Origin: a virus
Virus record (IMG/VR): IMGVR_UViG_3300045988_162372
Length of the DNA stretch: 64,000 nt
Reading direction: 5' to 3' (one strand)
Shown here: positions 921-59,347 of the stretch, in pieces
How the letters are laid out: each line of letters begins with the position of its first letter
Position numbering within the stretch: the first letter of the stretch is position 1
The notes under the pieces: model-generated
Database searches by the model: none
Told to the model about the DNA's origin: nothing
Seen by the model: the letters and a program-made list of their open reading frames with translations, nothing else
Program-made: the position numbers and the translations under genes

Positions 921-947
921 TTTGTTAACTTTATTTAACTCAATACA

Positions 948-1276: not shown

Positions 1277-1291
1277 AGAGGAGGGTAAAAT

Positions 1292-1783: not shown

Positions 1784-1797
1784 AAACATATCATATT

Positions 1798-2052: not shown

Positions 2053-2218
2053 GAAAGAAGTACAAGATTATATAAATCGTTTGATTACTTTGCAAAAGAA
2101 TGGCGATCCTGAAATAGACCATCCCGAAGCAGATAATATATTGTGCGAGATTATAGAACAATTAGGGTATCCAGAGATTATAAAAGAATACGATAAGATA
2201 CATAAATGGTATAGTTGA
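2042..2218 (+). CDS. hypothetical small protein (58 aa, below ORF-track cutoff)
   Basis: hand-translated ATGATG..TGA ORF (MMNEKEVQDYINRL...KWYS) filling the otherwise empty 2053-2218 gap and overlapping the upstream stop. Confidence 0.4.
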   Translation: MMNEKEVQDYINRLITLQKNGDPEIDHPEADNILCEIIEQLGYPEIIKEYDKIHKWYS

Positions 2219-2243
2219 TTTATTATTTATTAACAATAAAAGT

Positions 2244-2274
2244 TTTGGATATAAAAAACATTTTTGTATCTTTG
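2244..2274 (+). promoter_or_regulatory. Bacteroidota-type promoter (-33/-7)
   Basis: TTTG-N19-TATCTTTG upstream of ATG 2322. Confidence 0.65.
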
Positions 2275-2321
2275 CAAAGTAATAAGAAAAGAGATTATTA
2301 ACGTTTAAACTGAATTATATT

Positions 2322-3362
2322 ATGTGTTTGATTAGCCAAAGTTTAAAGCCATTCGTAGCTAAGAAAGATTTGAAAGTGTTTAAAATCCTAAACAAGGATG
2401 AAAAAGGTAATTATGAAACACCCTATCAGCATTGCAAAGTTGAACTTAATAGTTTGATGCAAGCTAATGAAAATAGTGGTGATTATAGTAAATATAACTG
2501 GGGAGATGGCGGTCATAAATGCCAATTACAAATTAATGGTGGATTTATTCATTCTTTGTTCCACGATATTAAGGAATATACAGACAATAATAATCCATGT
2601 ATCGTGGTAGCTTACATTCCAGAAGGAACTGAATATTTCATCAGTACAAGGTTTATGGATGTTTGTTCCAAACAACTTAAATTGACAGATGAGATTGTTA
2701 ACATTGATGATGCAGTTCTTTCAAAAGAGGAAATGATGGATATTCTTTCACCAATTTCTGAAACTATTGACAAAGAAAAGGTAGATGCTGGATGGTTGGT
2801 AAAAAGTGATAAGACTTTTCTTCATCCGTCAGAATATACCAACGAAGTGAAAGATGATATTATTGGTGTTGTGGGAAGCATTATTGACGGGAAGATTATC
2901 GTTATTGCTCTTGATAAAACAAGATGCGAATGGTGTCAGAATAATGAGAAAGTAGATGATATGCCTACTATTCCTTATAGTGAGGTATATGATAACTTTA
3001 AGGGAAAAGAATATACTGAAATTATTAAAAATAACAAAAAATATAAAAAGGATAATAGCTATTTTCCTGCGTTTGATTATTGCCTGAAATACAAAACGAA
3101 AGGCACTGAAAGCGGTGATTGGTATCTGCCTTCAAGTGGGGAATTACATAGAATGCTCAATATGAATAGGGATGTCCTTAATTATGCTTTTTTTATTATG
3201 GGTACGGAATTAATAAAGGACGATACGGGTTACTGGGCTTCTGCCGAGACTAGCTCCACGCATGCTTGGAGTTGCTATACGTACGGTGCGGGTCTGGGCT
3301 ATTGGTACGGTAAGTGGGGTAGCGGTTACGTGCGTCCTTCCTTTGCTATTGAGGCTGATTAA
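2322..3362 (+). CDS. DUF1566 (C-type-lectin-like) domain protein, paralog of 54073..55057
   Basis: 346 aa; N-terminal MCLIS.. domain shared with 54073..55057; C-terminal GDWYLPSSGELHRML ... GYWAS ... YVRP pattern typical of DUF1566/Lcl C-terminal domains. Confidence 0.7.
   Translation: MCLISQSLKPFVAKKDLKVFKILNKDEKGNYETPYQHCKVELNSLMQANENSGDYSKYNWGDGGHKCQLQINGGFIHSLFHDIKEYTDNNNPCIVVAYIPEGTEYFISTRFMDVCSKQLKLTDEIVNIDDAVLSKEEMMDILSPISETIDKEKVDAGWLVKSDKTFLHPSEYTNEVKDDIIGVVGSIIDGKIIVIALDKTRCEWCQNNEKVDDMPTIPYSEVYDNFKGKEYTEIIKNNKKYKKDNSYFPAFDYCLKYKTKGTESGDWYLPSSGELHRMLNMNRDVLNYAFFIMGTELIKDDTGYWASAETSSTHAWSCYTYGAGLGYWYGKWGSGYVRPSFAIEAD
3221..3350 (+). other. adenine-depleted GC-rich segment (DGR variable-region-like) at 3' end of the DUF1566 gene
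   Basis: hand count about 19 A in 130 nt and about 55% G+C inside an otherwise A-rich genome; followed by hairpin GAGGCT-gatta-AGCCTC (3351-3367) across the stop codon. Confidence 0.4.
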
Positions 3363-3440
3363 GCCTCTATTAGCAGTGTAACTGCCTTATTGTAAGCAAA
3401 GCGAACTTGTATTAAGCGTTAGCTTTATTATTTACTATAC

Positions 3441-3480
3441 AGATAGTTAGTGGAACATATCTCATTAACTATCTTTTTTA
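3441..3480 (+). terminator. rho-independent terminator
   Basis: AGATAGTTA / TAACTATCT 9-bp stem followed by TTTTTT. Confidence 0.6.
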
Positions 3481-3515
3481 TTATTCTATTATTAACGTCA
3501 TTTAACCATAATAAT

Positions 3516-3546
3516 TTTGTCAGACGAAATATTTTTACTACCTTTG
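3516..3546 (+). promoter_or_regulatory. Bacteroidota-type promoter (-33/-7)
   Basis: TTTG-N19-TACCTTTG upstream of ATG 3591. Confidence 0.6.
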
Positions 3547-3590
3547 CACCTGTAAGAGATAAGGAAATAAACAAATCGGAGGTTAAAGAT

Positions 3591-3767: not shown

Positions 3768-3874
3768 TAATATACCAGATGACCCAGAAACGAAAAAGTG
3801 ATAAAAAACGAAGTTTTCTATTAATTTTTTGGAAAGTAACCGATATTTATTAATATAATAGAAACGAGAAGAAT

Positions 3875-5095
3875 ATGAAACGTGCATACAAATACAAACT
3901 GAAACCAACAATGAGGCAGCAACAAATGTTGTTGCAGCATTTCGGTTGTTGCCGTTTCATATACAACTGGGGATTGGATAGGAAAAAGAATGCATGGACG
4001 AATGAAAAGAAATCCATAGGTTATCTTCAACTTGCAAGGGAATTAACGCTATTGAAGAATGACGGCGAACATGGTTGGCTGAAAAATGTGGCAAACGAAA
4101 GTTTGCAGCAATCATTAAGAAACTTGGATAATGCTTATACGCAGTTCTTCAAGGCAAAGAAGGGATTCCCCAAATTCAGATCGAAGAAACACAGCAAGAA
4201 CGTATGCAAGTTCATCAACAACGTGCGCTTTGACTTTGATAAATGGAAAGTCAGAATACCCAAGATGGGATGGACAAAGTTGTGTCACAACAAAGCATTT
4301 GACTTGTCCAAATGCAAGATTGGAACTCTTACAGTGTCACAGGACAAATGTGGAGACTACTGGTGCGTAATCATTGTCGAGGATGGTGAAAAACCGAAAC
4401 CGAAAGCCAAGATTTCGGAGAAAACTGCCGTTGGCGTAGATTTAGGCATCAAAGATTTTGCCATATTGTCCGATGGTACAAAATATGGAAATAACAAATT
4501 CCTTGAAAAAGGACAAATACGCTTGAAGAAATTGCAACGCAGGTTTTCAAAAGCACAGAAAGGGTCGAAAAGAAGGGAAAGGCTGAAAATTAAAATCGCA
4601 AGACAGCACAGAAGAATATCCAACCGCAGGTCGAATTTCTTGCACAAACTGACAACCGATTTAATGTGCAAATATGACACAATCTGCCTTGAGAACCTTA
4701 ATGTGCAAGGGATGATGCAAAATCATCATTTGGCAAATGCAATTTCAAGCGTTTCATGGAATGAATTTGTAAGACAACTTGCATACAAAGCCGAATGGAA
4801 TGGGAAAAACGTGATATTTATCGGCAGGTTTGAACCCAGTAGCAAGACTTGCTCTTGTTGTGGGTACATTAAGAAAGACCTATCATTGAAAGACAGAAGT
4901 TGGATTTGCTCCAAATGTGGCGCAAGCCATGACAGGGATGTGAATGCAGCAATAAACATACGCAACTTTGGATTGCATCCACAATCGCAGGTTGCGATAG
5001 AAAATAAAATCCCAGAGGTAACTGGGATAAATACGGACGGTGAGGGCAATGGCACAAGTCACCCTGTGAAACGTCAAGATAATAAACCGTGTTAG
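3875..5095 (+). CDS. tnpB: TnpB RNA-guided endonuclease (IS200/IS605 OrfB)
   Basis: 406 aa; RuvC-like D (AVGVDLG), E (ICLENLN), D (HDRDVNAAINI) and CSCCG-x16-CSKCG zinc finger. Confidence 0.9.
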   Translation: MKRAYKYKLKPTMRQQQMLLQHFGCCRFIYNWGLDRKKNAWTNEKKSIGYLQLARELTLLKNDGEHGWLKNVANESLQQSLRNLDNAYTQFFKAKKGFPKFRSKKHSKNVCKFINNVRFDFDKWKVRIPKMGWTKLCHNKAFDLSKCKIGTLTVSQDKCGDYWCVIIVEDGEKPKPKAKISEKTAVGVDLGIKDFAILSDGTKYGNNKFLEKGQIRLKKLQRRFSKAQKGSKRRERLKIKIARQHRRISNRRSNFLHKLTTDLMCKYDTICLENLNVQGMMQNHHLANAISSVSWNEFVRQLAYKAEWNGKNVIFIGRFEPSSKTCSCCGYIKKDLSLKDRSWICSKCGASHDRDVNAAINIRNFGLHPQSQVAIENKIPEVTGINTDGEGNGTSHPVKRQDNKPC

Positions 5096-8431: not shown

Positions 8432-9157
8432 ATGAGCAAACCGAAACATACGGTATTTTGTCCAGAATGCGGGCGTAGCAAGATATTGTTTGAAACAGAG
8501 AAGAAGGCAAATTTGTTTCTTCAATACAATTCAGACGATATAGCACACAGCAATAGATACGGAAAGAAACCAGTAAGGAGTTATTATTGCAAGGTGTGTG
8601 GCGGATGGCACGTTACAAGTGTCAAAGAGAATCTATATCAAGATTATAGCCTTACTGATAGAGTTGTTTCTTTATATCATCAAGACGAATTAAATAAAAA
8701 ATTAATTTTGAAACATATAACTTCCTCTCCAACAATCAAAGAAATTGTAGATAATTTTCAATATATTGGATTATTTCTGACAAATGAGTCAAAAGATGTA
8801 CTGAAACAATATATCGAAGATAATTTTGCTGATATGATAAAAGATGGAAAGATGTATCTTGACCATTGTACAATTCTACATCGCTCTCAAAAAGAGGATA
8901 AGAAAGCATTACGTTGTCTTGACAGATATATCAAGGATAGTGGCAAAGGTATAAAGGAAACTATTGTTATAAACAAAATAGGGTATAACAATGAAGCTAT
9001 GGCGTTTGGATGTAGGGTGAATACTCCTTGCGTGAATACCCAACCTCATATTACTATCTGTACATTCGGTAACGGAAAACCTATGGCAAGTAATTCTATT
9101 ACTAATTGGAAAGATATCAATCCTATTAAAGTGAAAGCTATCATACATAGAGTTTAA
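8432..9157 (+). CDS. zinc-ribbon / 2H phosphoesterase fusion protein
   Basis: N-terminal CPECG...CKVCGGWH; C-terminal pair of H-x-T-x motifs (LDHCTILH and QPHITICTF) about 65 aa apart, the 2H (LigT/CPDase/Acb1-fold) signature. Confidence 0.55.
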   Translation: MSKPKHTVFCPECGRSKILFETEKKANLFLQYNSDDIAHSNRYGKKPVRSYYCKVCGGWHVTSVKENLYQDYSLTDRVVSLYHQDELNKKLILKHITSSPTIKEIVDNFQYIGLFLTNESKDVLKQYIEDNFADMIKDGKMYLDHCTILHRSQKEDKKALRCLDRYIKDSGKGIKETIVINKIGYNNEAMAFGCRVNTPCVNTQPHITICTFGNGKPMASNSITNWKDINPIKVKAIIHRV

Positions 9158-25895: not shown

Positions 25896-25926
25896 TTTGA
25901 TTTCTGTGTTGATTTCACTATCTTTG
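25896..25926 (+). promoter_or_regulatory. Bacteroidota-type promoter (-33/-7)
   Basis: TTTG-N19-TATCTTTG upstream of ATG 25957. Confidence 0.65.
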
Positions 25927-25956
25927 CACTTAGTTAATATAAAATATAAATATAAT

Positions 25957-27162
25957 ATGGAACAAATTATCAAACATTTTACAGACAATGACGCTTATAC
26001 GTTTACTTGTCAATACTACATATTGAAGACATATCCTCGTGCTGAAGTAGAATATAAATTCTTTGATAGGAATCATACAAAGTATCCGAAAGGCTTTGCC
26101 GAGCTATTACAAGAACAGGTGAATTACATGAAAGATGTGATTATCACAGACGAAGAGATTGCATTTATGTCTAAGAATATGTATTATCTTCCTTTATGGT
26201 ATTTTACTTTCTTGAAAGGTTATAGATTTAACCCTAACGAAGTAACTATTTCACAAGATAATGAGGGTCATCTTGATATTGCGGTAAAAGGAAAGTGGTT
26301 TTCAACGATTATGTGGGAAATGCCATTACTTTCTTGTATTTCTGAATTGATGCATAAACTTAATGGTGATGAGGATAAATATAATTTAGCAACAGAATAT
26401 TGGAAAAATTATGATAAAATGACCAAAGCACTTCAAAATGGCTTAATCATCTCCGATATGGGAACAAGACGCAGATTTTCTTATAATTATCATCACAATG
26501 TAATTAGATCTTTTGTTGAAGCATCTGAAAAATCAATGGAAGAACTTTATAGTTACGGAGAATTTGTAGGAACATCAAACGTATGGCTTGCCAAAAGATA
26601 TAATTTAAGACCAATCGGTACGATGTCTCATCAAATTATTTCGTTTGAAGAAACTGTTAGTGGTATCTTTGAATGTAATAATCAAACAATGTCTAAATGG
26701 AGTGAATGTTATGATGGTTTAAACGGAACATATCTCTATGATTGTTTTGGTGATAAAGTATTCTTTAACAATTTCCAAACAAAATATGCAAAATTATTTG
26801 ATGGATTAAGAGTAGATAGTGGTGACGAGTTTGAACAAATAGAAAAAATCATTGATAAATATAAGTCTTTGGGAGTTGATCCTAAGACAAAAACTGTCGT
26901 ATTCAGCAATGGGTTGAATTTGGATAAAGCATTGGAAATACATAAATACATTGGTGGAAGAGTTAGAGATACATATGGTATCGGCACATTCTTTACTTGT
27001 GATATTGAGAATGTTAAACCTTCAAATATTGTAATCAAATTGGTAAAAGGGAGAATTACTGAACAACGTGAATGGCATGATTGTGTGAAGCTCTCCTGTG
27101 ATAAAGGAAAGACACTGGGTAATCAAGAGAAATGTAACTATTTGTCTAACATTATTAATTGA
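25957..27162 (+). CDS. pncB: nicotinate phosphoribosyltransferase
   Basis: 401 aa from ATG 25957; FTDNDAYTF, RFNPNEVTISQDNEGHLDIAVKGKW..IMWEMPLLSCISE aligns by eye with E. coli PncB ([36 protein letters not shown]). Confidence 0.85.
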   Translation: MEQIIKHFTDNDAYTFTCQYYILKTYPRAEVEYKFFDRNHTKYPKGFAELLQEQVNYMKDVIITDEEIAFMSKNMYYLPLWYFTFLKGYRFNPNEVTISQDNEGHLDIAVKGKWFSTIMWEMPLLSCISELMHKLNGDEDKYNLATEYWKNYDKMTKALQNGLIISDMGTRRRFSYNYHHNVIRSFVEASEKSMEELYSYGEFVGTSNVWLAKRYNLRPIGTMSHQIISFEETVSGIFECNNQTMSKWSECYDGLNGTYLYDCFGDKVFFNNFQTKYAKLFDGLRVDSGDEFEQIEKIIDKYKSLGVDPKTKTVVFSNGLNLDKALEIHKYIGGRVRDTYGIGTFFTCDIENVKPSNIVIKLVKGRITEQREWHDCVKLSCDKGKTLGNQEKCNYLSNIIN

Positions 27163-27169
27163 TGAAATT

Positions 27170-27979
27170 ATGAAAAATAACAAACTTATACTTTGTGGAA
27201 TTTTTGGAGATATTATCGGAAAGCATTTCGAGTTTTTGAGAATAGCCAATAAGACAAAAGACTTTGAATTGTTTAGTAAAGATTCAACATACACAGATGA
27301 TACAATGTGTACGTTGGCTGTAATGAAGTGGCTCATTGATGATGTAAAGAAGCCCTTAGCACCTATTATGCGTGAAACATGTAATGTTGAACCATATAGA
27401 GGATATGGTGGAATGTTTCGTAAATGGTTACATGATGAAACTATGAGTGCCTACGGCAGTTTTGGGAATGGCAGTGGAATGCGAGTTGCACCTGTAGGTT
27501 GGTATGCCAAGACGGAAGAAGAGTGTCTTGAACTTGCAAAGCAATCTGCGATAATCACACATAATCATCCAGAGGGTATAAAGGGTGCGCAAGCTATTGC
27601 ATTGTCTGTATTTATGGCAAAGAATGGTAAGAGCAAACAAGATATTAAAGAAAGAATAACAGAGTTGTTCCACTATAATTTGGATAGAACACTCGATGAA
27701 ATTCGCCCTCACTATCATTTTGATGTAACTTGTCAAGGCTCTGTTCCAGAAGCAATTATTTCTTTCCTTGAAAGTACATCCGTCGAAGATGCTGTAAGAA
27801 ATGCTGTTTCACTTGGTGGTGATACTGACACACAAGGAATAATGGCAGGAGCTATTGCAGAAGCATATTACAAAGATTATGGAGATAGCATTATCTATGA
27901 CAAGACGTTGGAATATCTTCCACAAAAACATCTTGATGTAATAAAGAAATTTAACGAGAAAGTAAAAAATGCACAGTAA
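27170..27979 (+). CDS. ADP-ribosylglycohydrolase (ARH/DraG family)
   Basis: ATG 27170; GDIIGKHFEF, YTDDT, GNGSGMRVAPVG, THNHPEGIKGAQA, GGDTDTQGIMAGAIAEAYY. Confidence 0.85.
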   Translation: MKNNKLILCGIFGDIIGKHFEFLRIANKTKDFELFSKDSTYTDDTMCTLAVMKWLIDDVKKPLAPIMRETCNVEPYRGYGGMFRKWLHDETMSAYGSFGNGSGMRVAPVGWYAKTEEECLELAKQSAIITHNHPEGIKGAQAIALSVFMAKNGKSKQDIKERITELFHYNLDRTLDEIRPHYHFDVTCQGSVPEAIISFLESTSVEDAVRNAVSLGGDTDTQGIMAGAIAEAYYKDYGDSIIYDKTLEYLPQKHLDVIKKFNEKVKNAQ

Positions 27980-28880
27980 TAGATTTATTGTTAAGGAAGA
28001 ACTTTCTGTATCTGATACAGTTGTAAAAATAACAAATGAAATATATACCCAATTGCTTAATAAATTAAGTATTGGAAAATCTTTTATTTCAAAAGAACGA
28101 AATGTTATAATTAAAAAAGGTATTTTTGATTATCAAACAGCAGGAAAACTCAAGAATACATCTTTTATTAAAGTAAAATATGTCGTTTATTATTTTAATG
28201 ATGAACAAGAACATCAAGCATATATGAAATACGGTTATTTCAGAATGAATTCTTCTGCTGATTATGAAAATAGGGTAATTAATTTATATTTATCAATGGT
28301 AGATAACAAACCTACGATTGATTTCAAGAGTGATATACAACACGAAGTTAATCATATATTCCAATATGATAATGGTCAGCAAAAGGATGAGGATTTCTAT
28401 AAAAAGATTATTGATTTGAACAAAAGTAAGGTTAAAATGGATAGAATCATCGCTCGTGCGTTGTATTACACTTTCCCAACGGAACAGGATTCTTTTGTTT
28501 CTCAATATTATGCTTATTTAAAACGAAATAATATCCCTATCAAACAAGCAATTAATTATCGTTATGATAAAAATTGTCCTTATTATGATTTTGATACTCT
28601 TTTTGATAATATTGATGATATAAGTGGAGAAATAACTGATGAATATACACAAGATAAATTAGGTATCAGTTCTAAAAAATTATTCAACATCTTGAATAAT
28701 GCAGATGATAGATTTACTAACAAATTAGGAAAAGTAATAATGCGTTATGTTCAAGAAAAAGAACTAAATGAAGATTTCGAACACAGCGAAATTCATCTTA
28801 AAATTGATCCTCGTTTATCATTTGTATTAGAATGTTATAAGAAAGGAATTAATGAAGAAGAAAGTGAGTATTTTGAATAA
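27969..28880 (+). CDS. HExxH (gluzincin-like) protein, paralog of 38651..39694
   Basis: QHEVNHIFQ followed about 40 aa later by YYTFPTEQDSF; overlaps ARH gene end by 11 nt (same operon). Confidence 0.45.
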   Translation: MHSNRFIVKEELSVSDTVVKITNEIYTQLLNKLSIGKSFISKERNVIIKKGIFDYQTAGKLKNTSFIKVKYVVYYFNDEQEHQAYMKYGYFRMNSSADYENRVINLYLSMVDNKPTIDFKSDIQHEVNHIFQYDNGQQKDEDFYKKIIDLNKSKVKMDRIIARALYYTFPTEQDSFVSQYYAYLKRNNIPIKQAINYRYDKNCPYYDFDTLFDNIDDISGEITDEYTQDKLGISSKKLFNILNNADDRFTNKLGKVIMRYVQEKELNEDFEHSEIHLKIDPRLSFVLECYKKGINEEESEYFE

Positions 28881-28888
28881 TATGTGTA

Positions 28889-28921
28889 ATGACTTAGAAA
28901 ATTAGTCCTAAGTCATTTTTA
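28889..28921 (+). terminator. rho-independent terminator
   Basis: ATGACTTAG / CTAAGTCAT 9-bp stem followed by TTTTT. Confidence 0.7.
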
Positions 28922-28939
28922 TATTATTAACAGTTCTAA

Positions 28940-28971
28940 TTTGTTTCTTTCATTGAAAAATGTTATCTTTG
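28940..28971 (+). promoter_or_regulatory. Bacteroidota-type promoter (-33/-7)
   Basis: TTTG-N20-TATCTTTG, about 98 nt upstream of ATG 29069. Confidence 0.65.
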
Positions 28972-29017
28972 CAACGTGAGATGTAAAAAAAAATAATGTT
29001 TAACAATAAAAGGATAT

Positions 29018-29061
29018 GTTTCAATCCCTCTCCATCCTGAAGGACGGAGTTCCCTTGAAAC
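29018..29061 (+). promoter_or_regulatory. structured 5' leader hairpin
   Basis: outer stem GTTTCAA/TTGAAAC, 5x5 pyrimidine internal loop (TCCCT/TTCCC), inner stem CTCCATCC/GGACGGAG with TGAA loop; ends 7 nt before the start codon. Confidence 0.5.
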
Positions 29062-29068
29062 AAATTAT

Positions 29069-30079
29069 ATGGAAAATAATGAACTTTTGTATGACAAGGA
29101 TTTGGCTAATCGCTTTGTAAGTGATTATAAGTTGCCTATACAGCTAACTGATAAGAAGTATTTCTTTTATTTTCTTTCATTATATGAGAAAGAATACAAA
29201 TCATTAACAAAATATATACAGCTTTGTAATTTAATCAAAGAGAAGTATTACGATTCACCTAAGCTGTTCTTGGAGAAATATTACGAAGTGCGTGATGATA
29301 TTATAAAAACTGTCGAGGCAAGTAAGGCATATCAGAAGTTTAATAATATGGATATGTCTGTGTTTTCTATTAAAAATAAAAAGAATATCACAACAAACAA
29401 TATCTATAATGAGAATAATGCAGGGCGTATTTTCGTTTCATTTGACTTAAAGAAGGCTAATTTCCAAGCATTGAAGTATGTTAACCCTGACATCGTATTA
29501 AATGCTGATACTTATCAGGATTTTATTAAGAAATTCACAGATTTGGATTATGTTGCAGAAAGCAAGTATACAAGGCAAGTAGTGTTTGGCAAAATGAACC
29601 CAAAACGTCATATTACTGTTGAAAAGTATATGATTGATAAGGTATACGAATATATCACCGAAACCCATCATCTTACGAATTGTGTATCTATGTCAAATGA
29701 CGAACTTGTATTTGATATGGGTGAGGCTAAAAAACTTGACAGTCTTGCTATTCATAGTATTAATATTACTTGTGAGATGATTAGACAATTCATCCAAACA
29801 ATGTTGGGATTTGAAATGAATTTAGAAGTTTTCAAACTGCATAAATTACAACTTTGCTGTAACAAGTTCAAGAGAAGCCCTTATTATTATAAGGAATATT
29901 TGAATACAGAAGAACCAAAAGGAAAACTGATGTGCGTACCTATGAATTACTTTGCAATTGTATATAAGCTGTTTAATAATCTACCTTTGCAAGAAGAAGA
30001 CTATCATTTCGATTATGAAGGATTGGATAGCAAATATTGTGAGAATTTTTACCTTCTAACTGATTTTCAAAATAACTAA
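29069..30079 (+). CDS. compact family-A-polymerase-like protein (tentative)
   Basis: IFVSFDLKKANFQAL (motif A-like), SKYTRQVVFGKMNP (motif B-like), SMSNDELVFDMG (compare Pol I QVHDELVFE), MNLEVFKL; only about 85 aa between the A and C aspartates. Confidence 0.4.
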   Translation: MENNELLYDKDLANRFVSDYKLPIQLTDKKYFFYFLSLYEKEYKSLTKYIQLCNLIKEKYYDSPKLFLEKYYEVRDDIIKTVEASKAYQKFNNMDMSVFSIKNKKNITTNNIYNENNAGRIFVSFDLKKANFQALKYVNPDIVLNADTYQDFIKKFTDLDYVAESKYTRQVVFGKMNPKRHITVEKYMIDKVYEYITETHHLTNCVSMSNDELVFDMGEAKKLDSLAIHSINITCEMIRQFIQTMLGFEMNLEVFKLHKLQLCCNKFKRSPYYYKEYLNTEEPKGKLMCVPMNYFAIVYKLFNNLPLQEEDYHFDYEGLDSKYCENFYLLTDFQNN

Positions 30080-30083
30080 ATAT

Positions 30084-31130
30084 ATGGATAATAATAAAAC
30101 AAGTATTATATTTTTTGGTTCTGGGGATTTTCCTTACCCTACATTTAAGACCATTGTAGAGAATGAAGTTTATGATGTGAAAGGTTTGGTTACTTCTCCG
30201 TATAAGCCGTATTTTTATTCTGAGACATTGAAAGATGTAGCAGAAAGAAACAATATACCTGTGTTTTCAACACATAAGCCAAATTGTGCAGAGCTTGTCG
30301 AATGGTTGAAAGAAAAGGAAACCGACATTTTCTGTGTGATTTCTTATAAATTCCTTTCAAATGATATATTGAGAATTCCAAAGATAACAGCATTTAATGT
30401 ACACGCTTCATTACTGCCACTACTTCGAGGTGCTGCCCCTATTAACTGGGCAATCAGATATGGTTTTAAAAATACTGGTTTAACCTCATTTGTATTAAAT
30501 GAACATATTGATTGCGGAGAGATTATAAATAATATAAGTATCCCGATTGAAAGTAATGATGATTATGGTGTAGTTTTCAATAGATTATCTGTTCTTAATG
30601 TTGGCTTTACCATTGAAACAATATCACGTTTAAGAAAGTCTGATTGGAGACGTTATTTAATACTTCAACCAGATCATATTGAAGATGATATGTTCATGAA
30701 TGCTCCAAGATTGAATAATGATAATTGTACATTAAATACACATATATTTTCTGCATTTAATTATGCAATACCACAACTTTATGATGTGATTAGGTCGCTA
30801 TCACCAAATATAGGGTTAAATATTACATTAAGGGCAATGAATGAAGAAAGAAATGGTTTCTGTTGCCTTAAAAAATATGATGCCAAAATATATAAAGCTA
30901 AACTTTTTCCTGAGATACCAGAAGAACATAAAAGTTATTGCAAGAGTTATTCAAACGTGGTAACTGATGGTAAATCTTTCATGTACTTAGTTAATAATTT
31001 AAACACACAAATTATATCCATTGAAGAAATACAATTAGCAGGAAAGAAAAAACTTAATATAAAGGATTTTGTTGCAGGTTTTCAATGGGCAAGAGATAAA
31101 AATGTATATTTGCTAATAACTGGTAGATAA
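30084..31130 (+). CDS. methionyl-tRNA formyltransferase-like formyltransferase
   Basis: IIFFGSGDF..., NVHASLLPLLRGAAPINWAI, TGLTSFVLNEHIDCGEI match the Fmt N-terminal domain; C-terminal extension present. Confidence 0.75.
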   Translation: MDNNKTSIIFFGSGDFPYPTFKTIVENEVYDVKGLVTSPYKPYFYSETLKDVAERNNIPVFSTHKPNCAELVEWLKEKETDIFCVISYKFLSNDILRIPKITAFNVHASLLPLLRGAAPINWAIRYGFKNTGLTSFVLNEHIDCGEIINNISIPIESNDDYGVVFNRLSVLNVGFTIETISRLRKSDWRRYLILQPDHIEDDMFMNAPRLNNDNCTLNTHIFSAFNYAIPQLYDVIRSLSPNIGLNITLRAMNEERNGFCCLKKYDAKIYKAKLFPEIPEEHKSYCKSYSNVVTDGKSFMYLVNNLNTQIISIEEIQLAGKKKLNIKDFVAGFQWARDKNVYLLITGR

Positions 31131-31146
31131 CAAAAAACTTAAATAA

Positions 31147-32358
31147 ATGACATTAAATTTAACGTATAAAGGAAATAAATGGTTGAGTGGGGCAATTCCT
31201 GCTCTTTTGATACACTGCTGCATTGGCAGTGTATATTGTTGGTCTTTGATTAAGAACAACATCGCAATTGAAATGGGTGTGGCTTCTTCCCAAATTGAAT
31301 TTGCATTTTCATTGGCAATTTTCTTTTTGGGCATGAGTGCTGCGTTCTGTGGCAGATTCATCGAAAAGAACGTGAAGTATTCTTCACTTATTTCAGCGAT
31401 TTGCTTTACTTCTGGATTGTTCTTGACAACAGTTGCGATGCATTTGCATAGTATACCCTTGCTGTTCTTATCTTACGGATGTATCATGGGTATCGGATTG
31501 GGTATAGGCTATTTAAGTCCAGTCAAAACATTGATGTTATGGTTCAGCGAACATAAGGGCTTGGCAACTGGTATTGCTATTAGTGGCTTTGGATTATCAA
31601 AAGCAATTCTTTCACCATTCATTGAATGGTGTAATGCAAATTATTCCATTTATGTAACATTGTGGGCTATTTCATTGATAAGTATGTTCTGTATGTTATT
31701 GGCTTCAGCACTTATTAAAAAACCTGAAGGATGGGTGGAAACTACTGATAAATTTTCGATAAAGGATGTGTGGAAAATAATTACAAATTCAGAGTATATT
31801 AAGATATGGCTGATATTTTACATTAACATAACCTTGGGTTTATGTCTGATAAGTTTTGAGAAAGATTTATGTCTTACTAACGGCATAGTTGCTGTGGGCA
31901 TTATATCGTCATTAACGGCATTGTTCAATACTATTGGTAGATTTGGCTATTCTTCCTGTTCGGACTTTTTAAAACGTAAGGAAATAATCTATGTTATTAT
32001 ATTTGCAAGCAGTTTGATAGTATGCGCCATATATGGCTTAAATCTGATTAATATTGGGGTTGCAACAATACTATTGCTTTGCGTTATTAACGCAGGATAC
32101 GGTGGAGGGTTTTCTACTTTACCCACATTACTACAATCCAAATTCGGTATGGGGAATATCTCAACTATTCATGGTTTAGCATTAAGTGCTTGGGCGTGGG
32201 CTGGGCTTTCAGGAAATCAGTTATCTAATCTTGTGATTAATAGAATGGGATTAGGATATGAACACCTGATAACAATAGTTGCTTGTTTATATTGCATTAG
32301 CTTGATAATTACATTAACTATCAAAAATAAAATATGGAAAATAAAGAGAAACAATTAA
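31147..32358 (+). CDS. MFS transporter (oxalate/formate antiporter-like)
   Basis: 403 aa, about 12 hydrophobic helices; N-terminal GSVYCWS motif typical of OFA/YhjX-type MFS. Confidence 0.75.
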   Translation: MTLNLTYKGNKWLSGAIPALLIHCCIGSVYCWSLIKNNIAIEMGVASSQIEFAFSLAIFFLGMSAAFCGRFIEKNVKYSSLISAICFTSGLFLTTVAMHLHSIPLLFLSYGCIMGIGLGIGYLSPVKTLMLWFSEHKGLATGIAISGFGLSKAILSPFIEWCNANYSIYVTLWAISLISMFCMLLASALIKKPEGWVETTDKFSIKDVWKIITNSEYIKIWLIFYINITLGLCLISFEKDLCLTNGIVAVGIISSLTALFNTIGRFGYSSCSDFLKRKEIIYVIIFASSLIVCAIYGLNLINIGVATILLLCVINAGYGGGFSTLPTLLQSKFGMGNISTIHGLALSAWAWAGLSGNQLSNLVINRMGLGYEHLITIVACLYCISLIITLTIKNKIWKIKRNN

Positions 32359-39790: not shown

Positions 39791-41122
39791 ATGAAATTTG
39801 TAGAATTATTTGATAACGATATGAAACCAAAGTGGGATATAATAGAAAACATCCCACAGTTTGCAGCACTTAAGACAACCAAGCAAAGCAATACTTGGCA
39901 TAAAGAGGGTGATGCTCTTAGGCATACACGGCTTGTTGTTGAAAATATGCAAAGAGAATTGGATGAACAGAATATTGACAATCATTCTGCATATTATCTT
40001 GTAATGATGTCTGCCGCACTTTGTCATGACTTAGGCAAGGCAACTTCAACCAAATGGGATAAAGAGAAGAATGACTATGTATGTAATCATCATGGACAAG
40101 CAGGTGAGAATATTACCCGTATGTTGTTTTATGATGAGAAATTTATCATAAGGGAACTTGTATGCTATATGGTACGTTGGCATATGAATTTACATCATAT
40201 CTTGGATGATGAGGAAAAAGTTGATGAGAAACTGATAAATATGGCTCACGGATGGGTATCAATTCAAGATATGTTACTTCTCAACAAATGTGATTCTCTT
40301 GGAAGCCAGAATGACATTGAAACAAGAGAATTCCTTGAGAACAGATGGGATACCATTAAGGAAAGAGCAGAGAAGTTGGATGTATTTGATATGGTCTATG
40401 ATGATTATAATACGAAACATATATGTGAAAATCTGAATACTGCCCTAAATGCATCTAATCCAATTGCTCCATTTTCATTTATGACACTAAATTGGAGGGA
40501 TGTGCGAGAGTCTTGTAGTAATATATTGAGGCATACTCCTATAAATTGGAAAACAAATAATATAAAGATATTAAATCAATTCACTGTCTTTATGATGGTA
40601 GGTATTCCTGGAAGTGGTAAAGATACTATTATACGAAAATACTTAAATGATATTCCAACTGTATGTAGAGATGATATCCGCACTGAAATAGGTATTCAAG
40701 GAGAGAAGCCTATGGGTAATAAAGAACAGGAGAAGAAAGTGACTCAAATATTCGAGGAAAGAATGTTGGAATATTGCAAACAAGGTAAGAGTTTTGTTAT
40801 TAATAATACAAACCTTAAAAAGCAATACCGTAACAGATTCTTGGATATCATAAAGCCTTATAAACCAGTCGTGATTTATATTTATGTGGAAGCTCCGTCA
40901 ATAGTTGATAATTTTGCAAGACGTGCTGGACAAATAGATAAGGATATAATACGCAGGATGGCTTCAAACTTTGATTTCCCTTATCCTACGGAATATACTA
41001 CTTTGTGGCTCGATATACAAGGTGAACCACAATTCACTGAAATATATGGTAACGCAATGATGAGTCATATAATTCAAGATATGATGCAACCAAGAAAGAA
41101 GAAAGATGAACAAGAACATTAA
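39791..41122 (+). CDS. HD-Pnk: HD phosphoesterase fused to P-loop polynucleotide 5'-kinase
   Basis: N-terminal H..(ALRHTRLV)..CHDLGKA..HHG HD domain; C-terminal MMVGIPGSGKDT Walker A, CRDDIR, NNTNL; same architecture as bacterial HD-Pnk end-healing enzymes. Confidence 0.8.
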   Translation: MKFVELFDNDMKPKWDIIENIPQFAALKTTKQSNTWHKEGDALRHTRLVVENMQRELDEQNIDNHSAYYLVMMSAALCHDLGKATSTKWDKEKNDYVCNHHGQAGENITRMLFYDEKFIIRELVCYMVRWHMNLHHILDDEEKVDEKLINMAHGWVSIQDMLLLNKCDSLGSQNDIETREFLENRWDTIKERAEKLDVFDMVYDDYNTKHICENLNTALNASNPIAPFSFMTLNWRDVRESCSNILRHTPINWKTNNIKILNQFTVFMMVGIPGSGKDTIIRKYLNDIPTVCRDDIRTEIGIQGEKPMGNKEQEKKVTQIFEERMLEYCKQGKSFVINNTNLKKQYRNRFLDIIKPYKPVVIYIYVEAPSIVDNFARRAGQIDKDIIRRMASNFDFPYPTEYTTLWLDIQGEPQFTEIYGNAMMSHIIQDMMQPRKKKDEQEH

Positions 41123-44176: not shown

Positions 44177-45043
44177 ATGGCAATAAACCTTTTAAAAATT
44201 AACGCAGAAGCCGTACTATGTACGGGTGATTTGCATGGAAACCTGAATAGCATTGGATACCAGATTAAACAGTTTGGTATCCAAAATTCAGTTCTGATAT
44301 GTTGTGGGGATATTGGATTAGGCTTTAATAAGTTGGAATATTATAAACAATACTTGAATAAGTTGAAGAAGGTATTGACCAAATATAATGATTATGTCAT
44401 TCTTCTTAGGGGTAATCATGATGATAAGGCGTATTTCGACAATAAGCTCATTAATGATAAAAGGATTAAGGCGGTTTCTGATTATACAATAGTGCAGGTA
44501 TATCCTATGGATGATACAGAATGCCTTTCTCTTCCATACAATGTGTTATGTGTCGGTGGAGCTACCTCAATTGACAGAATGCACAGAATTAGTGTAAACA
44601 ACAAACTGTTGATGGAATATTCCAAACATCATAATATGGAAACTTTGGAGGAAGCAAAAAAGAATTGTCTGAAATGTTATTGGGAAGACGAAGCACCTGT
44701 ATATGATGAAGAGACACTGAATGAGATTAAGGAACAAGGAATTACCATTGATGCTGTAACAACACATACTTGTCCATCTTTCTGTCAACCATTGACTAAG
44801 GATGGCATTCGATATTGGATGCAGTTTGACACTAATCTTGAAAAAGATATTGACAATGAACGCAACGTGATGGATAAACTTTATGATAAGTTGATAGAGG
44901 ATAAACACCCATTATCTGTATGGTGTTATGGCCATTATCATTATCATCATAATGACAGTATTAATGGAATAAGATATTACCTCCTTGATATGGAGAGAAA
45001 TGGAAAGATGGATATAATAACGATATATAAAAGTGGAAAATAA
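44177..45043 (+). CDS. calcineurin-like metallophosphoesterase (lambda-PPase-like)
   Basis: CTGDLHGN, CCGDIGLGF, LRGNHDD, GHYHYHH. Confidence 0.8.
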   Translation: MAINLLKINAEAVLCTGDLHGNLNSIGYQIKQFGIQNSVLICCGDIGLGFNKLEYYKQYLNKLKKVLTKYNDYVILLRGNHDDKAYFDNKLINDKRIKAVSDYTIVQVYPMDDTECLSLPYNVLCVGGATSIDRMHRISVNNKLLMEYSKHHNMETLEEAKKNCLKCYWEDEAPVYDEETLNEIKEQGITIDAVTTHTCPSFCQPLTKDGIRYWMQFDTNLEKDIDNERNVMDKLYDKLIEDKHPLSVWCYGHYHYHHNDSINGIRYYLLDMERNGKMDIITIYKSGK

Positions 45044-46622: not shown

Positions 46623-48167
46623 ATGACAAAAGAAATTTTCACGCTGTCAGAAAATGCGAAACTGGAATATTCTTGTACAGTAGTTCAAATTGGGGAAGTA
46701 AAACCTGTTGAAGGTTCAGACTTTCTTGGTTCAACACTAGTAAATGGTAATCCTATAGTTGTGCGCAAAGACCAAATCAAGGAGGGTGATATAATGATAT
46801 ATGCCCCTATTGAAACTGTGCTTAACAAACAATTTCTCTCTGTAAACAACCTATTTGAAATTGGAGAAAAAGAACTGAATTCAAATTTTAAGGAAGTTCA
46901 AGCACTTATCAATGAGGGAAAGAAAGAAGATGCTAAGAAAAAGGTGGGCTTCTTTAATAAGCATGGTCGTGTGAAGCTTATCCGCTTGCGTGGGTGTCCG
47001 TCTATGGGTTTCCTTATTGAAAAGGAGTCACTTGTAAAGTGGAAACCTAAGTTGCAGGACGTTGATTTCTCTCAATACGTGGATAAGGACTTTGATACCA
47101 TTGATGGGGAACTCTTTGTCAAGGTATATGTGCCTTATGTACCACCTATAAGAACAAGGGATAAATCAGCAAAACGAGACAAGAAATTAAAAAGATTTTC
47201 AAGACTTATTGAAGGTGAATTTAAGTTTCATTACGATACACAACAACTTGCTCGTAACATTCATCTGATTAAGCCAGATGATAAAGTGTTAATAACCAAC
47301 AAATTACATGGCACGAGCTTCATTTGCGCTAACATATTGACAAAGAAACCTGTTCAGCTTTCCAACATTCAAAAGCTCTTTAACAAGATGTCTAATAAAA
47401 AGATTAAGAAGTTAAAAAAGCAGAATGCTACTCACTATGCAGATAAGAAAAGATTGGAAAATCAAATCAAGCAGTATGAAAAGATTAAGAGACCTACATA
47501 TACTGTCGGATATGGTAATATCTATTCTTCTCATACTGTCATTAAAAATCAGTATATTAATAGTGGTGTAAATAGTGGCTTCTATGGAGTGGATATTTGG
47601 GGAGTATACGATAAGATTATGAAACCTTATATTCCACAAGGTATGACGTTGTATGGCGAAATCTGCGGTTATCTTGACGCTACTGGCAAGATGATACAGA
47701 AGGGTTACGACTATGGCTGCAAAGTAGGCGAAAATTTTTTGATGCCGTATCGTATCACCACTACAAAAGAAGACCATACTAAGAAGGAATGGACTGTGAA
47801 AGAGGTATATGATTGGACTGTCAAACTCTTGAAAGAACATCCTGAATTAAAAAAGAATGTAAGACCTATTACAATTCTTTACAGTGGTACATTAAAGGAC
47901 TTGTATCCAGAAATTAGTGTTTCTGATCATTGGCATGAGAATGTTCTTGAAACTATGAGAAATGATAAGGAACATTTCGGAATGGAAGAGCTTGAACCTG
48001 AATGTATCAATAAAGTTCCGAGAGAAGGAATTGTCTTGAGAATTATGGAAGACCCTGTGGCTGAGGCATTTAAGTTGAAGAGTTTCCGCTTTCTTGACAG
48101 AGAGAGGTCTGAAATGGACAAGGGACAAGTTGATATGGAAATGGCTGATGCCTACACTGAACAATAA
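46623..48167 (+). CDS. RNA ligase with N-terminal OB-like domain (Rnl5-like architecture)
   Basis: N-terminal VVQIGEVKPVEGSDFLGSTLVNGNPIVV (OB/tRNA-binding-like); motif I TNKLHGTSF, III TLYGEICGY, V EGIVLRI..FKLKS. Confidence 0.7.
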   Translation: MTKEIFTLSENAKLEYSCTVVQIGEVKPVEGSDFLGSTLVNGNPIVVRKDQIKEGDIMIYAPIETVLNKQFLSVNNLFEIGEKELNSNFKEVQALINEGKKEDAKKKVGFFNKHGRVKLIRLRGCPSMGFLIEKESLVKWKPKLQDVDFSQYVDKDFDTIDGELFVKVYVPYVPPIRTRDKSAKRDKKLKRFSRLIEGEFKFHYDTQQLARNIHLIKPDDKVLITNKLHGTSFICANILTKKPVQLSNIQKLFNKMSNKKIKKLKKQNATHYADKKRLENQIKQYEKIKRPTYTVGYGNIYSSHTVIKNQYINSGVNSGFYGVDIWGVYDKIMKPYIPQGMTLYGEICGYLDATGKMIQKGYDYGCKVGENFLMPYRITTTKEDHTKKEWTVKEVYDWTVKLLKEHPELKKNVRPITILYSGTLKDLYPEISVSDHWHENVLETMRNDKEHFGMEELEPECINKVPREGIVLRIMEDPVAEAFKLKSFRFLDRERSEMDKGQVDMEMADAYTEQ

Positions 48168-54072: not shown

Positions 54073-55057
54073 ATGTGTTTAATTACTTCACAATTTAAAG
54101 CATATACACCTACAAGCGAGATAACGGCATATAAACTTGTCAAGAAAGCGACTAACAAGGAAAATATCTATTATTCTCCATTTCAAGGAGCTGTATATGA
54201 TTTTAATTCAAAAACTTCTCCCATACAATTATCAACTGGTAAAAAGAAAGAAACTGCTTCGACAAATCATGGTAATAAGAATTCATGGGGGGGGGTGGCT
54301 TCATGCTTTGCTTAATCCAAGCGAATACCCTTTATATCAAGACAAATATGTTATTCTAAGAGTAACAATACCCACATACCATGAAGATAATGATGGAAAT
54401 AGAATTGACACTGTTGTTTATATTTCAGACAATATGAATGAAATATGTACTAATAATATGAACATCTATAATGAAGTAATAGATATAAATTCTGCAAAGG
54501 TTAATTTATCAAGTGTTCCAATAAATTTTGAATTACCAGAAGGCATTAACATATCTTATAGTGGCAACAATATTAATCTTACTGTCAATTCACATAGCTA
54601 TACATTAGTAACAAGTTCTCCTAATTTTAATTCTTCTGTACAATGGGCAAAAGTTAAACCTGCTTCTGACATTATATCTGAATTTACTGATTTGCCTCAA
54701 TCCTACAAAGCAGCTAAACAATACTTCAATGGTAAAAATGATACCTCTATCATTAAACAGCTAGAAACAGAATACGAAAGGAAAAATAATAACAATATAT
54801 GTTATGAAGCAATAACAAAACTACAAGATGGGGAATATTTGCCTTCAATTGGCGAATTAAATGAGATAATTCAATATCAACATTACATTAACTACGAATT
54901 AAAACGTAATAACTCTGATAAACTTATCCAAAATGCTACATATTTTAGTAGCACACCATATTCGATTAATAATGTGTGGACTGTTAATGCAGAATATCTG
55001 ACGATATATAATTACTATTCAAGACAGAACAAATGTCTATTCTTACCTGTTAGATAA
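54073..55057 (+). pseudogene. DUF1566-domain gene (paralog of 2322..3362) split by a frameshift in a G9 tract
   Basis: 54073..54315 (MCLITSQ..) and 54137..55057 (..GGGWLHALLN.. YLPSIGELNEII..) each match successive parts of the 2322 protein; frames change inside G9 at 54287-54295. Confidence 0.7.
54287..54295 (+). repeat. G9 homopolymer (only G/C run longer than 5 that I saw)
   Basis: attcatGGGGGGGGGtggctt; G8 or G11 would restore one continuous reading frame. Confidence 0.9.
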
Positions 55058-57589: not shown

Positions 57590-58714
57590 TTATTTCACCA
57601 TTGCCGTCATTGCCGACTCAAGCTCTTTTTCAACCTTAATGATTTCTTCTTCCGTTGCTTTCCTATTTTTGGTTGCTTCCTCATGGATTGCTTGTACTTC
57701 TTTCAGCGTTTCGATGAGTCTTGCAGTAGTGGTACGCAGGGTTTCCACATCAACGACACTTCTTTCACTTTCTTTAGCAACATATATACTGTTTTGTTTC
57801 AAAAGTTCAGAATTCTTCAAAAGAATTTGATTAGTAGTATCACTGATTTTCTTCTGTGCATCAATGTTATTCTTCTGATTGTTCAACGCAACAGCAATTG
57901 ATAGCTGGTTTCTCCACACTGGAATTGTTGTGGAAATAATGCTTTGAGCTTTGTCTGCAACTGAAAGATTGTTATACTGTACAGTTCTAATCTGTGGAAG
58001 TGATTGTTTGATGACATATCTAAGTGTAAACATATCATTCAAACGCCTTTCAAGATTATTCTTGAACACTTGTGTATCTTGTATCTCAGTGGCAGTATAT
58101 TTGTCAGGATTCTGTTCCATATCTTGAATGGAACTTTCTAATTCTTCTACCTTTATCTTTCCTGCGATGATAAGTTCCTCAATCTGTTGACCATATAGAA
58201 TATTATTATCGAACATAACCTGCAAGGCATTATTATCACGTAAAGCAAGCATTCGCATTGCAGTAATCTTCTTGGATATTTCATCCACGTTCTGTGCAAT
58301 GCTGTCATATTTCTTCATTATCTTTTCAACTGATTTTACTAAATTCTTCAAAATAGGTATTCTACTGAGGAATTTCTTGATAGGTGATATATCCTCAAAA
58401 TCATCAAGCTCAACATAGCCAAGTTCAGTAAGTAAGTTGTCCACCAATGTGCCGATTTCTCCACACTTTGATGTCCTTACAGCATTCAAGAAATCATTGG
58501 AATACTTCGTCATAGAAGTCTGCAAATCAGAGCCAAAACTTGATACCGAGTTAATGTCTTTGACGACAAGACAAGAATTCAATCTGTTATATTTAGCTTT
58601 TTCCTCTTCTGTTAAGTTTGCAAGATTAATCTCTCCGTTCTCGCTTACTCTTTTTACCAATGCATTAGTAACTATTTTCTCTTTGTTTTCGATATTGTTG
58701 TTGTTATTTTCCAT
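57590..58714 (-). CDS. telA: TelA-like (toxic anion resistance family) protein
   Basis: 374 aa; SSFGSDLQTSMTKYSNDFLNAVRTSKCGEIGTLVDNLL and long coiled regions as in TelA/KlaA proteins. Confidence 0.7.
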   Translation of the reverse strand: MENNNNNIENKEKIVTNALVKRVSENGEINLANLTEEEKAKYNRLNSCLVVKDINSVSSFGSDLQTSMTKYSNDFLNAVRTSKCGEIGTLVDNLLTELGYVELDDFEDISPIKKFLSRIPILKNLVKSVEKIMKKYDSIAQNVDEISKKITAMRMLALRDNNALQVMFDNNILYGQQIEELIIAGKIKVEELESSIQDMEQNPDKYTATEIQDTQVFKNNLERRLNDMFTLRYVIKQSLPQIRTVQYNNLSVADKAQSIISTTIPVWRNQLSIAVALNNQKNNIDAQKKISDTTNQILLKNSELLKQNSIYVAKESERSVVDVETLRTTTARLIETLKEVQAIHEEATKNRKATEEEIIKVEKELESAMTAMVK

Positions 58715-58828: not shown

Positions 58829-59347
58829 TTAGAATGGCAAATCATCATCGCTATCACCATTAACCAAAGGAATCTTCAAGCCTGAATTATCGACAACAGC
58901 TTGTTGCTCAGGTGTCAACATCTTAGTCTGTGTTTTTGGAATTTCCACTTCACTTGTTTGCTTTGAAGCGGATACTGGTGCTGCTTGTGATGTTTGATTT
59001 CCGTTTCCATCATTATTCCTATTGCTTGACTCTGAGAAATAAATCATTTCTGCACGGATATTTCTTCCAACCTCACAATTACCAGTGATTTTATTAGGAT
59101 AAACATTATCTGAATATTCCCCGATCACATTAATAGGTCTTCCCTTAGTCAGATACTTCTGAATGTTCATACCTTGTGTTGTAAAACAAGTTACTGAAAA
59201 CCAATAAGTGATAGGATTTCCTTGTTCATCCTTTGCATCACCAAACTCGTTATTTGCCATACGGAAGTGAATGTATTCCCTTCCCGATTGTGTAGTTTTC
59301 TTAACAGCGTCAGAAACAACTCTTCCGCTGAGTGTCATAATTCTCAT
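58829..59347 (-). CDS. ssb: single-stranded DNA-binding protein
   Basis: N-terminal OB-fold pattern (LSGRVVSDAV..., WFSVTCF) and canonical acidic tip DDDLPF. Confidence 0.9.
   Translation of the reverse strand: MRIMTLSGRVVSDAVKKTTQSGREYIHFRMANNEFGDAKDEQGNPITYWFSVTCFTTQGMNIQKYLTKGRPINVIGEYSDNVYPNKITGNCEVGRNIRAEMIYFSESSNRNNDGNGNQTSQAAPVSASKQTSEVEIPKTQTKMLTPEQQAVVDNSGLKIPLVNGDSDDDLPF

Follow-up and report, generated by a model that had tools for sequence, protein, structure and literature searches.

The window analyzed here, a 64,000-nt stretch of viral DNA (IMG/VR virus record IMGVR_UViG_3300045988_162372), carries near its left end a gene for a 346-aa DUF1566 protein, and the 3' end of this gene is very probably a variable region of an active diversity-generating retroelement (DGR). 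We put the probability at about 0.93 that positions 3224-3345 are the second variable region (VR2) of a DGR whose cassette, with the template repeat (TR), the reverse transcriptase (RT) gene and avd, is encoded in the same ~350-kb phage genome from the human gut, at a distance of 70.5 kb and on the other strand. The original prediction, made from the letters of the window alone, had read the adenine-poor segment as a DGR variable region; a TR, an RT, avd, variation confined to particular codons and a hairpin on the VR side were all found. Of the two fates it offered for a target without a cassette in view, remote or orphaned, the first held, and the second did not, because VR2 has been rewritten recently. 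As a remote DGR target this is a clear case, yet not an unprecedented one.

An adenine-poor segment at the 3' end of the target gene

The gene and its variable region occupy the following positions.

2322..3362, plus strand: DGR target gene, 346 aa, an intact open reading frame (ORF); its product has a DUF1566/Lcl_C (C-type-lectin-like) domain at the C-terminus and is beta-rich in its N-terminal part
3224-3345, plus strand: variable region VR2, 122 nt, codons 302-341, defined by homology to TR

Adenine depletion and G+C richness had been noticed over positions 3221-3350, an interval that departs from the TR-defined VR by just 3-5 nt. Our recount of this interval gave A = 19, C = 29, G = 43 and T = 39, that is, 14.6% A and 55.4% G+C, compared with 36.5% A and 31.3% G+C in the whole window and 36.7% A in the remainder of the gene (2322-3220). 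Only 0.1% of 130-nt windows were equally low in A and only 0.03% equally high in G+C, and the G+C maximum of the whole 64 kb, in windows of this size, fell within the segment. The encoded peptide is rich in Gly, Tyr and Trp. Its placement in the ligand-binding end of a DUF1566/C-type-lectin-like domain agreed with a weak match of residues 242-339 to Pfam Lcl_C/DUF1566 (PF07603; 23.7 bits against a curated cut-off of 34.9, E = 6e-5) and with the Foldseek fold matches given below. The gene at 54137..55057 (306 aa), which had been proposed as an internal control, also showed a weak Lcl_C match and, like the target, matched PHROG 4245; its final 130 nt contained 47 A (36%), an ordinary A-rich composition, and the gene had no match to TR. 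Judged from its sequence, this gene carries a paralogous binding domain that is not diversified.

The template repeat and cassette lie beyond the window

The earlier statement that no TR or RT is in view within the window was borne out: a repeat finder, low-stringency BLAST, an A-tolerant ungapped scan and BLAST of the true TR all failed to reveal a TR there, and no RT was found among the ORFs scanned with Pfam and PHROGs. Pfam matches of the larger ORFs were to NAPRTase, ADP-ribosylglycohydrolase, formyltransferase, MFS and TnpB, and PHROGs added RNA-repair enzymes. Contigs of up to 351 kb coding for the exact target protein contained no RT within 10 kb upstream of the target.

We therefore predicted the TR from the residue sets at the variable codons, which correspond to AAY codons (Y, C or T), and sought it with an AAY-based DNA pattern; this retrieved two metagenome contigs. 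An AAC that had been inferred for TR codon 334 was ruled out for this lineage, in which TR has AGC. The correct TR pattern found nothing in IMG/VR, where earlier patterns had matched VRs alone; the sole long IMG/VR contig (216 kb) stops ~24 kb past the VR, before the cassette. GTDB genome contigs gave no TR match.

Locus L007 contained, in this order, a 129-aa avd-like ORF, TR and a 401-aa RT. An RT 98% identical to that of L007 was encoded on the minus strand of scaffold_7 (363,202 bp) at ~243.6-244.8 kb, and a variant of the target gene was located at 168.6-169.6 kb on its plus strand. Many further cassette loci had a constant layout consisting of a 195-aa fibre-repeat protein, an 880-aa gene, avd, TR, RT and a D12 methyltransferase. 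The 880-aa gene ends in a further variable region (VR1), matching window positions 3224-3374. The TR of L007, with TAT at codons 303 and 310, and the cassette of L008 belong to other lineages and were left out of the window's mismatch count.

Two loci of the window's own strain, L015 and L029, are parts of one 312,870-bp contig; L015 has 1 mismatch to the window in 12,059 nt, and L029 has none in the 3,671 nt that correspond to window positions 60,330-64,000. A third, L030, comes from an independent assembly of ERR414413, the run in the window's ENA record, and was 100% identical over a 774-nt overlap. These loci run past the right edge of the window and supplied the window-equivalent coordinates of the cassette.

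72,534-73,739, minus strand: RT, 401 aa, starting 119 nt downstream of TR
73,860-73,981, minus strand: TR, 122 nt with 38 A, identical in L029 and L030
74,154-74,543, minus strand: avd, 129 aa, immediately upstream of TR
74,713-77,355, minus strand: 880-aa fibre-like target gene, carrying VR1
74,730-74,851, minus strand: VR1, within the 880-aa gene

The cassette is located 8.5-13 kb past the right edge, with TR 70.5 kb from VR2 and on the opposite strand; the corresponding separation in scaffold_7 is ~75 kb. VR2 lies away from the cassette, and neither the window nor the 10 kb upstream revealed an RT or TR, in keeping with a non-adjacent target in the sense of Wu et al. (2018).

The RT matched Pfam RVT_1 (1.2e-18; 68 bits against a cut-off of 29.6) and the PHROG reverse transcriptase family (1.7e-81). 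Its best PDB match was 8ub7 (E = 1e-25), an entry labelled only 'Reverse transcriptase', which we take to be the Bordetella phage enzyme. The gene is intact in the window's strain, encoding 401 aa with the motifs IGNLTSQ and YVDD, and the SQ motif is regarded as specific to the RTs of DGRs. The orthologue of avd in L009 matched phrog_3206 'Avd protein of DGR' (1e-12), and a comparison of Avd with PDB gave no sequence match. An intact DGR-type RT and avd, the genes proposed as a check, were accordingly found adjoining TR.

Differences between TR and the variable regions fall at adenines

Comparison of VR2 with its own TR revealed 101 matching positions out of 122, and all 21 mismatches were at TR adenines (hypergeometric p = 1.4e-13); the repeat with adenine-only mismatches that was to be expected of a DGR is thus present in the same genome. 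The changes were 15 A-to-G, 4 A-to-T and 2 A-to-C, and the A-poor, G+C-rich composition of VR2 results from these A-to-N changes, mostly A-to-G. VR1 likewise differed from its own TR at adenines only (15 of 15 mismatches, p = 2.5e-9). Nine same-genome comparisons (eight VR1-TR pairs, and VR2 of L014 against TR of L009) placed 160 of 164 mismatches at adenines. TR itself was stable, being identical in nine of 13 cassettes, and its 38 adenines are mostly in 14 AAY codons.

These comparisons already refute the notion that no DGR is involved and that the composition stems from a lectin loop rich in Gly, Tyr, Trp and Ser or from a horizontally acquired G+C-rich patch. The Gly/Tyr/Trp-rich peptide and the coincidence of the segment with the G+C maximum of the window fit that notion, but each difference from a TR in the same genome is at an adenine, the non-diversified DUF1566 paralogue is ordinary in composition, and the sequences differ in specific codons only, and there at the first and second positions; its probability is negligible.

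Compared with the consensus TR of other strains, VR2 of the window had one non-adenine mismatch, at the third position of codon 319. The window strain's own TR carries this private substitution (C55T; codon 319 AAT), as does VR1. A TAT at codon 336, private to scaffold_7, was present in TR and VR1 of L009 and also in VR2 of L014, 75 kb away, and the TR variants of L024 were found in L024 VR1 as well. The presence of private TR variants in both VRs indicates that information flowed from TR to both VRs after strain divergence.

We also considered whether VR1 could be the sole true DGR substrate, with VR2 varied by gene conversion from VR1 through homologous recombination of 150-nt modules. VR1 and VR2 are homologous over 151 nt, flank included, and share eight identical substitutions in the window's genome, which speaks for such an exchange. 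Conversion would, however, homogenize the two copies, whereas an alignment of VR1 and VR2 from the same genome revealed 17 differences, all at TR-adenine positions, with unique substitutions in each copy, and scaffold_7 behaved likewise. The 17 adenine-templated differences argue that the two VRs were written independently and not copied from each other. In addition, non-adjacent targets and action of avd-TR-RT in trans are established for DGRs (PMC5758913). We hold gene conversion to be highly improbable as the source of VR2 variation.

A conserved boundary and flank distinguish the variable regions from TR

Three adjoining or overlapping features mark the 3' end of VR2, the first of them resembling an initiation of mutagenic homing (IMH) sequence.

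3326..3345, plus strand: invariant 3' end of the VR/TR homology, IMH-like (TTACGTGCGTCCTTCCTTTG), after the last often-mutated adenine and including the G+C-rich CGTGCGTCC
3346..3374, plus strand: VR-specific 3' flank of 29 nt (CTATTGAGGCTGATTAAGCCTCTATTAGC), common to both targets and absent from TR
3351..3367, plus strand: inverted repeat GAGGCT-GATTA-AGCCTC, hairpin- or cruciform-forming, with a 6-bp stem and a 5-nt loop, straddling the TAA stop codon (3360-3362)

Mutation counts over 12 VRs showed that TR positions 101 and 102 were changed in nine and five VRs, respectively, and position 105 in one, and that no position beyond was changed. The stretch corresponding to 3326-3345 was identical across TR and all VRs, lineage variants aside, and, by analogy with the Bordetella phage system (PMC5758913), may play the role of the IMH. 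DNA homology between the two targets starts exactly where the homology to TR starts and ends 29 nt past the point where the latter stops, and the two target proteins share just their last 48 residues. Where the VRs have the 29-nt flank, TR continues with the unrelated ATTATAAAATGCACAGG. The flank is identical after VR1 and VR2 of the same genome, whereas the 5' flanks and the sequence past 3374 are unrelated. It was conserved in all 12 VR copies, save for an A/T change in the loop (three copies), one change in the stem and the penultimate base in L020. We regard it as a candidate target-recognition element on the strength of this distribution. Since only VR and flank are common to the two targets, which have opposite orientations, the 122-nt VR and the 29-nt flank would delimit a natural minimal recognition element.

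The hairpin over the stop codon, noticed earlier, is present at 3351-3367 and belongs to the flank that is conserved at both VRs and missing from TR. Its predicted DNA fold has an energy of -5.9 kcal/mol (z = -3.3), and it is not terminator-like because no T-run follows. An IMH-like boundary with an inverted repeat downstream was thus both present and conserved at the VRs, but not at TR.

Hypervariability in the population and recent rewriting of VR2

The 90%-identity cluster of the target comprised 197 distinct sequences, and many further clusters were found at 75-95% identity. Alignment of 55 full-length homologues revealed distinct VR peptides in 54 of them, with a mean column entropy of 0.1-0.7 bits over residues 1-300 compared with 1.2-1.7 bits over residues 301-340. 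Codons 303, 310, 314, 317, 319, 321, 322, 324, 326, 327, 329, 330, 333 and 335 each encoded 9-15 residue types and lay next to the invariant residues W305, S307, V337 and R338; hypervariability was therefore confined to specific codons (14 in this alignment), as had been anticipated for a DGR target. Three pairs of proteins were identical over residues 1-300 yet had different VRs. At the DNA level, the differences were restricted to the first two positions of those codons, and the residue sets at the hypervariable codons were those reachable from AAY by adenine changes alone.

It remains to weigh whether VR2 is a relic, with a composition that is a fossil, strain differences that are old and no further use as a DGR substrate. 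The distance of 70 kb to an inverted cassette, the recurrence of the exact protein on several contigs and the correlation between scaffold divergence and VR divergence (Spearman 0.46) favour this. In two independent lineages, however, the remote VR contained TR substitutions private to the strain; the rewriting of VR2 must therefore postdate these TR mutations, and the absence of any non-adenine mismatch to its own TR indicates that no decay has occurred since the last homing event. The three protein pairs with identical residues 1-300 and different VRs, the intact RT and the conserved recognition flank likewise oppose a relic, which we judge to be very unlikely.

Several observations weigh against an active DGR with VR2 as its substrate, or against parts of this reading. 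The exact 346-aa protein recurred on at least five contigs from different samples, so VR2 is stable between samples in this strain and homing must be episodic. K331 (AAG) and E309 (GAG) hold TR adenines yet are nearly invariant, which, we assume, requires selection. Two family assignments fell under their Pfam cut-offs, namely bAvd for the avd product (25.9 bits, cut-off 40) and Lcl_C for the target (23.7 against 34.9). The hairpin stem showed no compensatory changes, and the case for a role of the hairpin is accordingly one of conservation and analogy. The cassette positions beyond 64,000 were taken from other assemblies (of the same strain and of the same run), and the case for a DGR that may be active in the window's own population comes entirely from assemblies.

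Proposed mechanism and comparison with known DGRs

By analogy with Bordetella phage BPP-1, TR would be transcribed, and a complex of RT and Avd would copy it into cDNA, misincorporating opposite template adenines. The cDNA would then replace a VR wherever VR homology and a 3' recognition element exist, the latter probably composed of the G+C-rich VR end followed by the 29-nt flank with its GAGGCT/AGCCTC inverted repeat. One TR could in this manner diversify both the cassette-adjacent fibre-like protein and the remote 346-aa DUF1566 protein, the products of two otherwise unrelated genes.

The DGR prototype, that of BPP-1 (mtd VR, avd, TR, brt), resides in a genome of ~42 kb. The system described here shares with it the adenine-specific TR-VR differences, the AAY codons, the order avd-TR-RT, the location of the VR at the 3' end of a gene with a C-type-lectin fold, and a G+C-rich VR end (IMH) followed by an inverted repeat that is missing from TR (PMC5758913). 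Whereas BPP-1 has one adjacent target, there are two here, one of which lies 70.5 kb off in inverted orientation, within a genome of ~350 kb. The hairpin, with its 6-bp stem and 5-nt loop, overlaps the stop codon, and the target fold is DUF1566/Lcl_C-like, in contrast to the Mtd-like fold in BPP-1.

Non-adjacent targets were reported in 45 of 372 DGRs, that of Treponema denticola having seven, and distances above 100 kb occurred almost exclusively in DGRs outside phages, whereas the non-adjacent targets of phage-associated DGRs lay 'in nearly all cases within 50 kb of the RT' (Wu et al. 2018, PMC5758913). Our system resembles these in that one TR serves several distant VRs, recognized by A-only differences, but it is phage-borne with a separation of 70.5 kb (75 kb in scaffold_7). 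A phage-borne, inverted target at 70-75 kb extends the known range, as a phage genome of 350 kb allows. DGRs with two targets are described in crAss-like phages ('tentaclins', PMC10743442), and Roux et al. (2021, PMC8144416) state that remote targets go undetected by their survey approach. As this case shows, adenine depletion can be a sufficient sign of a DGR target, even where the cassette lies outside the stretch examined.

This phage lineage occurs very widely in the human gut: public assemblies contain hundreds of distinct VR alleles and RT-bearing contigs. A more distant DGR cassette was found at L008 698-807 (ULSG01021021.1), with a TR ~74% identical and the same AAY codon layout; this likeness suggests that the DUF1566-type VR/TR design is common to a wider group of elements.

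Fold and possible role of the target protein

An AlphaFold model of the 346-aa target, built from 32 sequences, had a pLDDT of 89.5 and a pTM of 0.89. Foldseek matched the model to PDB entries 4eps, a fimbrial protein of Bacteroides ovatus (E = 9e-9), and 8q4e, the C-terminal domain of Legionella Lcl (E = 2e-3), and, in a viral library, to gut-phage proteins of the DUF1566 and tail-fibre kinds (E values as low as 1e-12). The C-terminus of the target, where the VR lies, accordingly has a ligand-binding fold of C-type-lectin type. A search of PDB with the target sequence gave no sequence match, and the N-terminal ~200 residues had no informative match, with no fibre or pilin N-terminal domain detected.

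Folds like that of 4EPS (type V pilin-like) define 'domain group 1' among five groups of variable proteins of Bacteroides DGRs, and 70% of this group is prophage-encoded (Macadangdang et al., 10.1101/2024.11.15.621889). Our target is comparable in that its top PDB fold match was 4eps and that the promoters of the window point to a Bacteroidetes host; the likeness is one of fold match alone, and the 346-aa target differs in having no detectable pilin or tail-fibre N-terminus and in its distance from the cassette.

Two putative expression signals flank the target gene.

2244..2274, plus strand: promoter-like motif of Bacteroidetes type (TTTG ... TAtcTTTG), 48 nt upstream of the target ATG, repeat family D4
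3441..3474, plus strand: terminator-like stem-loop and T-run, a consensus match only, in which the consensus scan found a 13-pair stem followed by TTTTTATTAT

The first suggests that the target gene has its own promoter, and the second is the probable end of its transcript. The gene is situated in a block of small early-type or hypothetical genes, ~70 kb from the fibre genes. This location, the promoter-like and terminator-like sites and the lack of a fibre or pilin N-terminus raise the idea that the remote target is a separately expressed soluble binding protein, not a receptor-binding protein of the virion, an idea that we consider rather unlikely. If it were true, a jumbo phage would draw on one TR to diversify a non-structural effector together with a tail fibre; the effector might, for example, bind variable components of the host surface, of its defences or of the cell interior. 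In that case, the 151-nt module of VR and flank would act as a portable 'diversify-me' cassette, which could be grafted onto unrelated genes genome-wide.

The replicon and its promoters

There is evidence that the replicon is a jumbo phage with a Bacteroidetes host: human-gut contigs of 312-363 kb with 31% G+C, Bacteroidetes-type promoters, and phage-type genes (fibre repeat, YopX, Phage_HP1_YO09, SSB, RNA-repair and NAD-salvage). By description rather than by sequence, it resembles the Jug (jumbo gut) phages of Bacteroides and Phocaeicola in its human-gut origin, its Bacteroidetes-type promoters, its size (contigs of 351-363 kb versus curated genomes of 360-402 kb) and its G+C content (31% versus ~30%; Chen et al. 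2026, PMC12880540). DGRs and reverse transcriptases both go unmentioned in its main text (PMC12880540), so that, if the replicon is a Jug phage, a diversification system for host range or adhesion would be added that is absent from the Jug description. A megablast of window positions 1-20,000 against GenBank phages (August 2025 release) gave no match. A megaplasmid preprint (PMC12934698) deals with elements of Bacillota and is unrelated.

The promoter pattern TTTG-N17-23-TANNTTTG occurred 26 times in the window, compared with 5.6 occurrences expected, and none of 100 shuffles reached 26. This enrichment suggests that the host is a member of the Bacteroidetes and that many genes have a promoter of their own. 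The motif (TTTG-N17-23-TAnnTTTG; repeat families D1, D3 and D4) was mostly located before small plus-strand ORFs, for example at 948-979, 2244-2274, 6120-6151, 9465-9496, 13051-13082, 39732-39762 and 43855-43885.

Neighbouring genes and other features

The TnpB gene noticed downstream of the target was confirmed at 3875..5095 by three Pfam domains, starting 513 nt after the stop codon instead of the 400 nt given earlier; it is unrelated to the DGR target. The 406-aa product contains HTH_OrfB_IS605, OrfB_IS605 and a Cas12f1-like TNB domain, and no TnpA accompanies it. The element is a strain-specific insertion of ~1.37 kb (window 3763-5130): L014 and L004 align with the window over 1-3762 and 5131-7256 and have ~220 nt in between instead of TnpB. 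Other TnpB copies were found elsewhere near the cassette in L019, L022 and L027, and on the opposite strand in L014; such differences in site between strains suggest that these elements are actively moving in this phage lineage.

After the RT gene, some strains have a D12-class adenine methyltransferase of 286-288 aa (L010 2432..3298, L022 2651..3511). In the window's strain (L029 8286-9366) and many others, 178 aa were called after a gap of ~545 nt behind the RT gene, and the short form may be truncated or frameshifted. A LAGLIDADG endonuclease gene was present a few genes further on in some strains (L019, L020, L021 and L024).

A metabolic cluster unusual for a phage extends over 25897..32358 and includes nicotinate phosphoribosyltransferase (25897..27162), ADP-ribosylglycohydrolase (27098..27979), formyltransferase (30084..31130) and a major-facilitator-superfamily transporter (31147..32358). 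RNA-repair or tRNA-related genes were dispersed at 8432..9157, 39791..41122, 44177..45043, 46623..48167 and 59460..60257; the set consists of tRNA_lig_CPD-like, polynucleotide kinase with a tRNA-nucleotidyltransferase-like part, metallophosphoesterase, RNA ligase and Thg1-like tRNA-His guanylyltransferase genes. Near these genes, SSB (58829..59347) and TelA (57590..58714) are encoded on the minus strand.

A 55-nt direct repeat was present in five copies with 67-100% identity (45385-45439, 48259-48313, 49848-49902, 50273-50327 and 50701-50755), spaced 0.4-2.9 kb apart within successive ORFs, and looks like a conserved motif of a small paralogous gene family. At the right edge, the 296-aa ORF 63101..63991 (minus strand) corresponds to the C-terminal portion of a longer gene, of 372 aa (Pfam Phage_HP1_YO09), that starts past the window (L015 8332..9450).

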